In this document: in pieces, positions 1,051 through 26,382 of the stretch | How the letters are laid out: each line of letters begins with the position of its first letter | How positions within the stretch are numbered: the stretch's first letter is position 1 | From: a virus | Taxonomy: Duplodnaviria; Heunggongvirae; Uroviricota; Caudoviricetes | Direction: 5' to 3' (one strand) | Length of the DNA: 26,382 nucleotides | Virus record (IMG/VR): IMGVR_UViG_2526164661_000013 | Program-made: the position numbers and the translations under genes | Notes under the pieces: generated by a model | The model's input: only the letters and a program-made list of their open reading frames with translations | The model's database searches: none | Told to the model about the DNA's origin: nothing

Positions 1051-3699
1051 CTATGTGGTTTTCGTCCCCAAATCCGTACTGGATGCGCTGGCGCTGTGGG
1101 TATGCGATTTAATGCCGTCCTGTTCCTGAGACAATACGGCCCGACCACTGGTAGGTTTGCCCTTAATCGTCCAGCCACGCATATCAGGGATCACGCCTGA
1201 CGGATAAGCCGCTGCAAGTTTCGGGTATGCAGATTTGTCAAAAATCTGCCCCTGCATCAGGGCATAGCCAGACGGAACGGTATCTGATGGCCACGGGATT
1301 GGTGCACCGACTGGATAAAACTCTGCAGGAGGATGAGCCGAGGTGTAAAGCTGCGCCCACGGCGACCAGTTTGCGTCGGTCGTATCCCGTCGTGAACGAA
1401 TAAATGCCGGAGCATGAGCACCGCTTGTACCACTCCAGCCGATGAGTAACTCACCTTCGCCAACGGCTGTCATCCCTTTCAGGTGAATGATATTTCCATA
1501 CGCTGTTGGATATCCGTTGTTATACACCTCGTATAACTCAAGACCTGTTGCCCCCTGCGTATTGTCTGTCAGCGCGGTTACCCGACCTTTTGAAGACAGA
1601 TTAACTGATGATACTGCTGTTCCACCTGACGGTAACGCCCCGATCTCTGATGCCGTTGGCTTATTTCTGGAGTTATAGTCCCTTCGCCAGCCAGGTGAAT
1701 AATCTGTTCCGTGATTAATATAGGTAAACTGGGCGTTAGTTGTTCCACCACCAGTGGAGGTGGTCGGTGTGGTAATGCGGATCGTCATCGCTGATTTTAT
1801 CCCCATTACTTCAATGACAGCTCCGGCGAGATGAATATTACCGCAGTCAGTATCAGTAATGATTTTATTATTGCCATAAGACCAGGAACCCTTGCACATC
1901 CAGTAGGGATGGTTAAATGCTCCCTGAGAATCCAGCCACTCGATAAACTGTGCAGTCGTCCAGTTTCCTGTTATTGTGCTTACTGACCCACCAAAGGCAC
2001 GGCAGGCACCAATATTTTTCGTAAAGGTGTCTTTGCCAGGGATATCCGCACCGTTCTGATCTTTCTGCAGACGTTTCTCAGCATTGTCATAGGCTGTTTT
2101 TACTGCCTTTGGTGTCGCGGCAAGCGTTTCAGACGTGCTGTTGGTCGCGCTGCTTAGCTGGATTATCCCTTTCTGTGCTGTCGTTGCATCCTGTGCGGTG
2201 TATTTCCCGTTAGCCAGGTCATACGCGGCCTTAACGGCTTTTGGTGTTGCCGCCAGTGACTCGGAAGTGCTGTTAGTCGCACTACTGAGCTGTACTATCC
2301 CCTTTTTCGTCGTGCTCGCATCCTCAAGCGCCACAGCGGATGCAATATCCTCTGCCCGTTTTGCTGCTGTCTCGGCGCGCGTTGCTGCGGATTCTGCCGT
2401 ACTCTTGCTCTGTGCTGCCGCCGTCGCACTGCCAGCAGCCTCTGTTGCCTTCGTGGATGCCGTCGTGGCGCTGCCCTTCGCTGCTGACGCTTGTCTGGTC
2501 GCCTCATCTTTTGAAGCAGACGCCGATGAGGCCGATGACGCCGCCGAACTGGCGGACGATGCGGCAGCCGTTTTTGAGGATTCTGCGCTGGTTTCCGACG
2601 CTTTCGCGTTCGTTTCGGATGTCTTCGCTGCGGAAGCTGACCTCGCTGCTGCGCTGGCCTGTTCAGTGGCTTCGCCAGCCTTCGTTGTGGCTGTTGAAGC
2701 GGATGATGCGGCGCTTTCTGCCGATTTTCCGGCGGCGATGGCACTGGCTGAGGCCTGCCCGGCACTTGTTGACGCGGCACTAGCAGACGACGCAGCCGCT
2801 GTTTTTGAGCCTGCCGCAGCTGAGGCGCTCTGTCCCGCTGCCGTCTCAGAAGACCTGGCGTTCGTCTCGGACGTTTTTGCCGCCTTCGCGGAATTTCCTG
2901 CCGCTGTTGCCGAGGAAGCTGCGCTACTGGCGCTCGAGGATGCGTTCGTTTCTGATGATTTTGCCGCCTCTTTTGAAGCCGCCGCATCCCGGGCTGAGGT
3001 GGCAGCTTCTGACGCTTTCGTGGTCGCGGTGGATGCAGAAGTGGCTGCTGATTGTTGTGACGCTGCCGCATTCGTTTCTGACGTTTTCGCGGCACTGGCA
3101 CTGGTAGCTGCCGCGCTTTTTGAGGACTCTGCAGCGGCAGCACTTTTTGATGCTTCAGTGGCCTTTGTTGATGCCGTTCCTGCGCTGGAAGACGCTGACT
3201 GAGCCGACGAAGCGGCCTGTCCGGCTGACGTGCTGGCTGCGCGTGCTGAGCCTGTAGCATCAGTCGCATGGGTTGCCGCCTCACGGGCAGATGTGCCGGC
3301 ATCGCCGGCTGACTTCTTCGCGACTGCCGTGTTCTGTGCCACCACGGACGCGTTACGCGCCACCTCTTCCACCATCAGTTCAAAACGGCGCAGTGCCTCC
3401 GGACGGGCATCATCCTCCGTCATGGCACCGAGAAAATCATTCAGCGTACCGGGTCGGGAATCTTCATACACGGTGATGGTCCCGGCATGTGACGGCGGGA
3501 ATCCCTCCACCAACAGAATAACGCTGTACTGCCCGTACTCAACGTCCATGCTGTAACGCCCGGCTTCATCCGGATTTTCTGAGGCCAGCGTGTTCACCAC
3601 CACCGTGGTACTGTTACGTTTTGCTTTCAGCTGGATTGTGCAGTTCTGTACCGGTTTTCCTGTGCCGTCTTTCAGTACACCTGAAATCTTTACTGCCAT
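1051..3699 (-). CDS. stf: Side tail fiber protein Stf, N-terminal and central part (882 aa from the MAVKISG start), terminated by an in-frame amber codon at 1051-1053
   Basis: [26 protein letters not shown]... matches the lambda Stf N-terminus. The long Ala/Ser/Thr-rich central region and the C-terminal ...[55 protein letters not shown] segment also resemble lambda Stf. The likely start is the ATG at 3697-3699, preceded by GTGGGGTGAAT. Confidence 0.85.
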
Positions 3700-18438: not shown

Positions 18439-18451
18439 CCTGAACCAAGAA

Positions 18452-23524: not shown

Positions 23525-23821
23525 TTTGTCGCTCCATTCGTTTGCTCTTCACTTGCGGCTAAAAATATAACGTCAAATCACTCAGCATGAAAGAGTGAAA
23601 GTTTCAGCGCGTTTCCCTTACATAATCTGTCGTTTGTATTCTCTTCAGGCATACCGGAAAGACTAGGTATTGTCACACAACCAATACCATCGACAATCGA
23701 GATTTATATCTATTCAGTAATGTTTAAATATAACAAAACCCCGTAAAAACGAGGTTTATGGGTAATTTGTATTGTTGAATAGCATCTGATGAGAAATTGA
23801 TGCTAATACTATAAACATGCT

Positions 23822-23995
23822 AGATTAGATCAATCTTGATATCATAGCTTTCAAGACCAGTCATTTTTTCCCGTGCAGTAAACTGGATACTGGTAACTTC
23901 TTTCCCGGTCTTTTTCTTAAGCTCAATGATTTTTTTGTTATATATTCAGAAATATCTGCTTCTGTTTTTGTTTTTAACTCTTCAATGTTCATCAT
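23822..23995 (-). pseudogene. gnsB: gns-like gene (GnsA/GnsB family, 57-aa class) disrupted by a 1-nt frameshift in a homopolymeric A tract
   Basis: The ATG at 23990-23992 opens MNIEELKTKTEADISEYITKK, then the frame changes at the A7 run (plus-strand T7 at 23930-23936). The +1 frame continues IIELKKKTGKEVTSIQFTAREKMTGLESYDIKIDLI to a TAG at 23822-23824. Joined with A8, the product would be 57 aa and co-linear with GnsA/GnsB as I recall them. Confidence 0.6.
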
Positions 23996-24164
23996 TTCCT
24001 CTTTTAGTCTGTTATGACTGTCCTGGTACACAGTAGTGTCAATTATATGGAGCAAACGTATAAAAGATAAGATGAAACATCGCAATAATCAACATACGAC
24101 GGTCTAAATTTCACACAAACAGATAAAGATGATTATCATTTATTATCAATGCATTAGAATCAAA

Positions 24165-24356
24165 TCAATTCAAGAGTCTCATTGCTGCTTCCAGAATTTC
24201 TTCTGAAGTTACATGTCGATCCGCTGCTACATAAATGACTTTATGATCTCCGGTCAGAGATGGAAACCCTGCAGCCATTACAGTGAGGTGTGTTGTTTCG
24301 CCATTTGGATATTCACGCATGATGGTGTTAACTCCGGTCATCACTGGCACTACCAT
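24165..24356 (-). CDS. Hypothetical small protein, 63 aa, adjacent to the IS66 end
   Basis: ORF only. An in-frame stop 14 codons upstream means it is not an IS-truncated C-terminal fragment of a larger gene. Family not recognised. Confidence 0.35.
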   Translation of the reverse strand: MVVPVMTGVNTIMREYPNGETTHLTVMAAGFPSLTGDHKVIYVAADRHVTSEEILEAAMRLLN

Positions 24357-24446
24357 TGCTGGTTCAGAGTTAAAAAAACTATTATTTTTTTCATAATGTT
24401 ACCGTAATAGTAAGCGTGCAGCAAGAACCGTATTGACGGGGATGTG

Positions 24447-25985
24447 TTATTCAGTCGGCAGTGCTACGCGCCAGGGGAGCAGTTCGCCGACCCGGTTTAT
24501 CGGCCAGTCGGCTATGACGTCAAGGACATAGCGGAGGTAGCTTTCTGGCTCCACTCCGTTCAGTTTGCACGTCCCGATCAGGCTGTACAGCAGCGCTCCC
24601 CGCTCTCCTCCATGATCCGAACCGAAGAACAGGTAGTTTTTGCGGCCCAGACTGACCATCCGCAACGCATTTTCAGCGATGTTATTGTCCGCCTCAGCCC
24701 AGCCATCATCTGCATAGTACGTCAGCGCCGGCCACTGGTTCAGGGCGTATGCGAACGCTTTCGCCAGTTCTGAGTGTCGCGACAGGGTTTTCATCTTTTC
24801 ACGCAACCAGCTTTCCAGGGATTTCAACAGCGGTTTCGTTTTTCGCTGACGTTCAGCAAGCCGCTGCTCTGCCGGCATTCCCCTTATATCCGCCTCTATG
24901 GCGTACAACTGACCGATCTGCTCCAGGGCTTCTTCCGTCAGTGCTGACGGGATGCGGACGTGCACATCGTGGATCTTTCGGCGGGCATGAGCCCAGCAGG
25001 CAGCTTCCGTTATCCCACCATTGCGATACAGCTCGTTGAACCCGGCGTACGCATCCGCTTGCAGCACACCGCTGAAGCAGGCAAGATGAGTCTGCGGATG
25101 GATGCCTTTTCTGTCCGGGCTGTAAGCGAACCACACTGCAGGTGCCAACGCTGACCCGGCATTGCGGTCATCACGAACATACGCCCACAACCGCCCGGTC
25201 TTCGTCTTCCTATTACCCGGCAGCAGTACCTGGACCGGGGTATCATCGGCATGGAGTTTGCCGTCAGTCATGACATAGCCATGAAGCGCCTCTTCCAGCG
25301 GAGACAGCAGCCGGCAGCATGCATCCACCCAGCCCGACAGCAGTGAACGGCTCAGCTCCACACCTTGCCGGCCGTATATTTCTGACTGGCGATACAGCGG
25401 GGTGTGCTCTGCATACTTCGAGGTCAGCACGCGGGCCAGCAGCCCCGGTCCGGCGATACCCCGCTCGATGGGCCGCGAAGGTGCAGGTGCCTGCACGATG
25501 GCATCGCACTGAGTACAGGCATGTTTTTCCCGTACCGTCCGGATAACCCGGAAGGCACTACGCATCAACTCCAGCTGTTCGGCGGTATCCTCGCCCAGAT
25601 AGCTCAGTGAACCGCCGCAGTTCGGGCAGCACGGCGCCGCAGGCAACAGTCGCTTTTCGTCACGGGGTAGTGATTCAGGGAACGGCTTACGGGTGCGGGT
25701 CTGACGCAACGGACGCTGTACAGCCGGGTCATACACCCTACCAGTCAGCGTATCGCTCTCTTTCTGAAGCCGGTTCAGATCGGCTTCCATTTGTGCGATA
25801 CGGCGGGAGACTTTTTCGGAACGACTGCCGAAGTTCATCCGGCGGAGTTTATCCAGCTGCGCCTGCAGATGGTCTATTTCGCGCTCCCGGTTGCTCAGCT
25901 TTTCCTGCAGGGCGTGGATCAGCGCTTCCTGTTCGGCCAGGCGCTGTTTCAGCAGGAAGATGTCGTCAGAAGAGATGTCGTTCAT
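24447..25985 (-). CDS. tnpC: IS66-family transposase TnpC (orf3), 512 aa
   Basis: N-terminal leucine-zipper-like coiled coil ([24 protein letters not shown]), the zinc-finger-like CPNCGGSL...CTQCD motif and a DDE-type core are typical of IS66 TnpC. Confidence 0.9.
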
Positions 25986-26034
25986 AAGCCCGTATTTTAC
26001 CGGGCTTATTCTGTGACAACCAGGATAAAGAGAT

Positions 26035-26382
26035 TTACAGCATGGTCAGGGAGGTCAGCAACCGCTTGGGCTGTCGCCAGTCGATACCTTCCAGCAGCAT
26101 CGCCAGCTGCGCCTGCGTAAGGAACACTTTGCCATCACGGGCTGACGGCCAGGCGAAGCGCCCACGCTCCAGCCGTTTGGTCAGGAGGCACAGTCCGTCA
26201 CCGGTGGACCACAGCAGTTTAACCTGACTGCCGCTGCGGCCCCGGAAAATGAAAACATGGCCGGACATGGGATCGTCTTTCAGCGCCGTTTGTACTTTCG
26301 CAGCCAGGCCGTTGAAGCCATTTCTCATATCGGTGATACCGGCAACCAGCCAAATTTTGGTCCCGGAAGGTAACGGGATCAT
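26035..26382 (-). CDS. tnpB: IS66-family accessory protein TnpB (orf2), 115 aa
   Basis: [31 protein letters not shown]...[36 protein letters not shown] is characteristic of IS66 Orf2. The start codon is the last three bases of the window. Confidence 0.85.

Follow-up and report, generated by a model that had tools for sequence, protein, structure and literature searches.

The window analysed here, a 26,382-nucleotide stretch forming the IMG/VR virus record IMGVR_UViG_2526164661_000013, carries a copy of gnsB that was probably inactivated when one A:T pair was lost from a run of eight adenines (A8), within a more general decay of the prophage that carries it. Replication strand slippage at the longest homopolymer of the gene would account for the change from A8 to A7, the pair being lost from codons Thr19-Lys20-Lys21-Ile22 (ACA AAA AAA ATC). 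A homopolymer is an expected hotspot for such an event, and the same contraction has been repeated in E. coli populations. From the normal start, the A7 allele specifies a 43-aa peptide with only the first 21 residues of GnsB, and because over half of the GnsAB domain is lost, this product, and with it the A7 allele, is most likely non-functional. An earlier inspection of the letters of this DNA (hereafter the sequence-only reading) had considered both a decayed gene and one that is expressed stochastically. The former fits the neighbourhood better, since three other lesions are present in the same prophage.

The gnsB reading frame

The features of the locus are collected in Table 1. Direct reading and translation confirmed that a gns-like gene is broken here by a 1-nt frameshift at an A7 run, and the coordinates and translations given for the region in the sequence-only reading proved correct. 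In frame 0 the run has the phase A_AAA_AAA, that is, the third base of the Thr19 codon ACA followed by the codons for Lys20 and Lys21. Translation from the ATG at 23992 yields MNIEELKTKTEADISEYITKK followed by SLSLRKRPGKKLPVSSLLHGKK and then TGA, and translation from 23930 yields IIELKKKTGKEVTSIQFTAREKMTGLESYDIKIDLI, which ends at the TAG at 23822-23820. The A7 run had been named as the site at which the frame is restored, and this part of the claim stands; the direction of the shift, however, had been given as +1. Counted from the ATG, the downstream segment begins at offset 62 and is read in the -1 frame. The gnsB frame is regained when an A is inserted or when the ribosome slips by -1, but not when the ribosome shifts by +1.

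In a base-by-base alignment, A7 in place of A8 is the sole frame-affecting difference from intact E. coli gnsB alleles, and no further inactivating lesion was found in the ORF. The other difference is a synonymous change at position 23828 (TTA>CTA, Leu55), which is private to the window when compared with K-12 gnsB and its RefSeq relatives. The 250 nt upstream of the gene align with those of A8 alleles without any difference. Direct reading also revealed a second ATG one codon upstream of the gnsB start (23995-23993, minus strand).

Table 1. Features of the gnsB region in the window (positions are those of the window)
Feature	Position	Strand	Remarks
gnsB pseudogene (putative), A7 allele	23820..23992	minus	start ATG 23992-23990; restored-frame stop TAG 23822-23820
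GAGGA ribosome-binding site	23997..24001	minus	4 nt upstream of ATG 23992; same as in intact alleles
A7 homopolymer (plus-strand T7)	23930..23936	minus	A8 in intact alleles
ORF as encoded, 43 aa	23861..23992	minus	21 GnsB residues and 22 out-of-frame basic residues, then TGA
-1-frame segment	23820..23930	minus	GnsB residues 22-57 (36 residues) and TAG, from translation
Terminator-like hairpin followed by a T-rich tail	23736..23757	minus	downstream of gnsB
ynfN, frameshifted	24165..24394	minus	T8 tract is T7 (plus-strand A7, 24372-24378)
Partial IS66-family element	24410..26382	minus	terminus GTAAGCGTGC, from 24410; window stops within the element

Identity of the gene and of its prophage

When one A is added, the joined 57-aa product is co-linear with the GnsA/GnsB family, as the sequence-only reading had claimed. 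It matches the Pfam model GnsAB_toxin (PF08178) with 114.5 bits (cut-off 27) over profile positions 1-54 of 54, and it matches the chains of the GnsA crystal structures 4xo1/4xo2 with an E-value of 8e-20. The encoded 43-aa product obtains 45.1 bits against the same model and covers profile positions 1-32 only. As written, the locus is predicted to be a pseudogene of the GnsA/GnsB family and not a functional member of it, since its ORF comprises 43 aa with 22 out-of-frame residues instead of an intact single domain of ~57 aa.

By its alignments the gene is gnsB, because the repaired product shares 93% identity with K-12 GnsB and 65% with K-12 GnsA. Its identity to WP_001019206.1 is 98%, the range across K-12 GnsB, WP_001019207.1 and WP_001019206.1 being 93-100%, and repaired GnsB has 100%-identical counterparts on at least 80 prophage contigs of IMG/VR. 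The sequence that had been given for the family was right as to family; on comparison, it is exactly that of K-12 GnsA, not that of GnsB. A protein search of viral contigs returned no diverse gns homologues, with only 100%-identical intact copies among the matches listed, and the NCBIfam models gave no match for GnsB, YnfN or the 68-aa ORF downstream.

The gene order in the relatives is lysis cassette - cspI - ynfQ (YmcF-like) - ynfN - gnsB - hypothetical - DUF1441 - terminase. The element that hosts gnsB is a Qin/mEp460-type lambdoid prophage, in which gnsB is a 57-aa moron gene. The gnsB of E. coli K-12 (b1550, Qin cryptic prophage) is the same gene in the same position, within cspI-ynfQ-ynfN-gnsB in the interval from the lysis cassette to the terminase. 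It has the A-tract at codons 19-22, as the window does, but with A8 (ACA AAA AAA ATT) where the window has A7, and the upstream part of the K-12 cluster is replaced in the window by an IS66-family element. A further comparison is with gnsA (b4517), which belongs to the same Pfam family, has the same 57-aa length and likewise adjoins a csp gene and a YmcF-like gene. In contrast to gnsB, its tract at the homologous codons is A6 (GCG CAA AAA ATC), and it is preceded by ymcE, a putative antitoxin gene, whereas gnsB is preceded by the unrelated ynfN. Overexpression studies and crystal structures (4XO1/4XO2) exist for gnsA.

When GnsA or GnsB is overexpressed, unsaturated fatty acids increase and the secG-null and fabA6 mutations are suppressed (Sugai 2001, 2004, as cited in PMC10607373). 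The name "addiction module toxin" goes back to a proposed YmcE-GnsA pair (Wei 2015, as cited in PMC8484670). A cognate antitoxin (YmcE, PF15939) was not detected beside gnsB: ynfN gave no alignment with YmcE and no Pfam match, while YmcE itself obtains 188.9 bits against PF15939. The toxin-antitoxin label is consequently not supported by the context of gnsB, because the upstream ynfN is unrelated to YmcE. YnfN was also considered as a YmcE-like antitoxin in its own right and was rejected for want of similarity. YmcE and YnfN (positions 2348-2578 of locus L134 and 2726-2956 of locus L003, respectively) are both 76 aa long and occupy the same position after the YmcF-like gene, with no detectable similarity between them.

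The intact allele and the recurrence of its contraction

Intact alleles read ACA AAA AAA ATY (A8) at the site, in E. coli, E. ruysiae, Shigella and seven temperate phages. The three nearest relatives of the window, 99.9% identical to it over 23.4 kb, have A8, as do 5/5 species-representative genomes, including those of E. ruysiae and S. flexneri, and 7/7 sequenced temperate phages with the region (e.g., mEp460, 2H10, HannyBb and PhiR63_1). Judged by this distribution, A8 is the ancestral, intact state and the window a 1-nt contraction of it, since the closest relatives, the species-representative genomes and the temperate phages all share A8. The proposal that an A8 tract would restore the frame is borne out by an allele that exists and is the common intact form across genomes, metagenomes and phages. 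The sequence-only reading had further suggested comparing tract lengths with gnsA, gnsB and prophage alleles, which gave A8 for gnsB and A6 for gnsA, and searching other genomes for A8, which was found as the majority allele in all three of the censuses described below. It had staked its case on intact relatives sharing the run, and intact gnsB genes do carry an A-run at this codon position.

The length of the tract was counted in three independent censuses. Exact 86-89-mers on the window-type haplotype, searched in 5,426 complete E. coli genomes, found A8 548 times, A7 25 times, A9 once and A6 never. A pattern permitting any tract of 5-11 nt found 115 A8 and five A7 among 120 metagenome contigs (no A9 or A6), and 117 A8, two A7 and one A9 among 120 IMG/VR contigs (no A6). 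Hence, A7 is a minority allele of about 2-4.5% in all three, A9 accounts for 1% or less, and 95% or more of homologous loci carry an in-frame A8; long-read errors may account for some of the A7 found in complete genomes. In two related genomes, STEC1590 (NZ_CP129345.1) and STEC1589 (NZ_CP129269.1), the A9 query matched over 89 nt with one mismatch, which represents either A9 with a SNP or an interrupted 9-nt tract.

For seven A7 alleles the flanking sequence was long enough to be compared, and each falls on a different local haplotype, with both major gnsB clades represented. The alleles closest to them have A8 and show 0-3 differences per ~1.2 kb, and some A7 haplotypes are identical to A8 alleles outside the tract. 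The window and another A7 locus (L133) have rare flanking variants that also occur in A8 alleles, and A7 is found in several different prophage architectures. Because A7 occurs on at least seven haplotypes, with A8 alleles as nearest neighbours and in several architectures, the comparison indicates that the contraction from A8 to A7 has happened many times in E. coli populations. The run had been called slippage-prone, and the tract is indeed variable in nature, several haplotypes bearing A7 or, rarely, A9.

The A7 gnsB lesion is already known and flagged in the public annotation of other E. coli genomes. PGAP annotates identical A7 alleles as "frameshifted", and two frameshifted gnsB entries in RefSeq, BWI87_RS15310 (strain 13C1079T) and H7R36_RS12090 (WP5-S18-ESBL-08), have the A7 lesion and a 43-aa product identical to that of the window, as do 43-aa "gnsA/GnsB family protein" entries in GenBank (e.g., KDT30433.1). 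The exact 43-aa product is deposited and was found on 659 contigs and in 927 index blocks, mostly short-read drafts (Logan, ENA, NCBI), and its K-12-type equivalent on at least 1000 contigs. These known pseudogene entries differ from the window in their flanking haplotypes, and none has its IS66 junction or its CTA variant. An exact E. coli-type gnsB with A8, with ynfN upstream, was also encountered at positions 3285-3331 of a contig assigned to a metagenome-assembled genome of Veillonella parvula (JAGZPX010000007.1), which is most likely a mis-binned Escherichia prophage contig.

Decay of the prophage copy and the question of base calling

The neighbouring ynfN is frameshifted in a similar manner, its 76-aa ORF being divided between an N-terminal stub of 14 aa and an ORF of 63 aa. 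The ynfN tract is T8 in the nearest relatives of the window and T7 in the K-12 MG1655 reference and in ~12% of the fetched loci; T9 was seen in one fetched locus. The insertion of the IS66-family element lies 15 nt upstream of the start of ynfN, and its tnpC is intact (24447-25985, 512 aa; NCBIfam NF033517, 460.9 bits). The cspI-ynfQ side of the cluster is replaced, so that of the csp, YmcF-like and small-ORF neighbourhood present in the relatives the window retains ynfN only. The IS66/ynfN junction was not found in any complete E. coli genome and had no exact match in IMG/VR. At the other end of the window, a nonsense substitution in the tail-fibre gene (S883*, TCG>TAG, 1051-1053, minus strand) truncates a 1023-aa protein and is private to the window. 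With the contraction of the ynfN tract, S883* and the IS66 insertion all in the same copy, this prophage is accumulating inactivating lesions of several kinds.

The same comparison brings forward the principal alternative to a genuine deletion, which is that the source DNA has A8 in gnsB and T8 in ynfN, and that long homopolymers were under-called by one base in the manner of long-read or flow-based sequencing. Between positions 997 and 24409, the window differs from its nearest relative, 20Ec-P-124, by 16 substitutions and exactly two indels, and both indels are contractions from eight to seven: that stretch has just two 8-nt homopolymers (those of gnsB and ynfN), and each is one base shorter in the window. 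No homopolymer longer than seven occurs anywhere in the window. Contractions also far exceed expansions in complete-genome assemblies (25 versus 1-3), and under-calling is the direction of the known homopolymer bias of long reads. We therefore retain this explanation, because systematic under-calling would give the same pattern of two contracted 8-mers. Nevertheless, it seems unlikely. The 7-mers (4/4) and six-mers (26/26) are unchanged, and there are no further indels. A7 is abundant in short-read assemblies and in metagenomes, and is on that account a real natural allele; T7 in ynfN is the reference state of K-12 MG1655, and the double state of A7 with T7 recurs in other assemblies (loci L338 and L233). 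Furthermore, S883* and the IS66 insertion, in the same prophage copy, are not homopolymer lesions.

The tract as a possible switch

Given that both shorter and longer tracts exist, the question arises as to whether A8 is kept for its instability. One such proposal holds that the A8 tract of gnsB, and perhaps the T8 tract of ynfN, is a low-rate reversible switch in Qin/mEp460-type prophages, whose recurrent OFF alleles are leaky through slippage and give stochastic, low-level GnsB instead of a true null; this we regard as very improbable. A phase-variable contingency locus in the strict sense, in which A8 would be kept as a reversible ON/OFF switch of a putative toxin or modulator of membrane lipids, with A7 as its OFF state, appears highly improbable. 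Tract-length variants that would be ON or OFF do occur among close relatives, A9 as well as A7 being present and A7 having arisen many times. However, eight nucleotides is short compared with classical homopolymeric contingency tracts, which counts against a contingency locus, and the low frequencies of the A7 and A9 alleles fit a dispensable gene in which mutation and drift act on a hotspot.

None of the 240+ loci, which span two diverged gnsB clades, has an interruption in the tract, as would be expected of a run that is actively preserved. We rejected this conservation as evidence of selection, because the clades are only about 6% divergent in the gene and AAA is the preferred Lys codon. 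The T8 tract of the adjacent ynfN behaves alike or more so, to judge by the frequency of its T7 state, and this parallel suggests that 8-nt runs in these morons are prone to contraction in general. Finally, the family is labelled as a toxin (Pfam PF08178; Wei 2015, as cited in PMC8484670), in which case OFF variants could be advantageous; the YmcE-type antitoxin partner is, however, absent at this locus.

Possible slippage at the remaining heptamer

The deletion proposed here would have left behind a slippery sequence. The heptamer A_AAA_AAA (23936-23930) is an in-phase X_XXY_YYZ motif, and the ORF downstream of it is read in the -1 frame. If two Lys-tRNAs slipped by -1 in tandem on the heptamer, exact wild-type GnsB would be made, as it would from an mRNA with one extra A arising from transcriptional slippage. 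In E. coli, A_AA.A_AA.A without stimulators shows frameshifting of >0.10% against a background of ~0.055%, and in every frame AAAAAAA is under-represented among the genes of E. coli (PMC4066793). A strong overexpression vector gave 25-60% frameshifting at C-AAA-AAA (PMC1851650), and selection against slippage becomes evident at runs of ~9 nt in many genomes (PMC1088944).

At the gnsB site, the 80 nt downstream fold no better than shuffled sequences (z = -0.45), which gives no indication of a stimulatory RNA structure, no match was found in Rfam around the site, and the 15 nt that precede the heptamer contain no visible SD-like motif. The frameshift arrangement is also not conserved among homologues, the great majority of which have the in-frame A8. 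Most likely, then, any rescue would be low and adventitious, in the range of ~0.1% to a few per cent, and would not amount to a mechanism that is used, since the fold is no better than shuffles, Rfam gives no match and A7 is a derived minority state.

Programmed recoding, in which the A7 allele would be expressed through -1 frameshifting or transcriptional slippage at a set ratio of the 43-aa to the 57-aa product, is scarcely credible. In its favour, the heptamer is suitably phased, the protein obtained after a slip is exactly the wild type, IS1 and IS3 elements use the same motif, which is prone to frameshifting in E. coli (PMC4066793), and AAA-AAA frameshifting is strong in some contexts (PMC1851650). 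Against it, A7 is a derived minority allele on many backgrounds and not a conserved state, structural and SD-like stimulators and an Rfam match are lacking, the 22-residue out-of-frame tail has no sign of a selected sequence, and intact functional phages all have A8.

A known precedent is "savior" frameshifting, as described in PMC1088944, PMC1851650 and PMC5009743, in which disrupted genes are rescued by transcriptional slippage on 8-9 A or by -1 slippage on A_AAA_AAA or C_AAA_AAA. The likeness is that an indel in an A-run leaves an in-phase heptamer, as in the window. The window differs from these systems in that its run is 7 nt, shorter than the ~9 nt from which selection against slippage is evident in many bacterial genomes, and has no stimulatory element.

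Significance

gnsB is a small accessory gene of the prophage, and its loss through the contraction of A8, a routine and recurrent homopolymer frameshift, matters little alone. This loss does serve as an example of how prophage morons break first at their longest homopolymers, of a lesion that recurs independently in a few per cent of the E. coli carrying gnsB, and of how such lesions and homopolymer sequencing errors are indistinguishable without reads. Its recurrence, with many origins, and the in-phase slippery heptamer that the deletion leaves are mildly notable. If the A7 allele were appreciably rescued by slippage, it would provide a natural case of "savior" frameshifting in E. coli.

Other differences from the nearest relatives

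The 3' end of the tail-fibre gene (~842-996) could not be aligned with the three nearest relatives, and positions 1-841 and 997 onward are colinear with them; the segment is probably a mosaic exchange in the tail-fibre C-terminus. An inverted Pin-invertible segment at 1-996 was considered and ruled out, as 1-841 is colinear with the relatives and only ~842-996 is divergent. The substitutions of the window lineage are biased overall towards G:C>A:T. Two G>A changes relative to 20Ec-P-124, at 18448 and 20524, fall in Dcm sites (CCAGG to CCAAG and CCTGG to CCTAG, respectively), which is the classical signature of 5-methylcytosine deamination, and both are common to the window and strain KE48.
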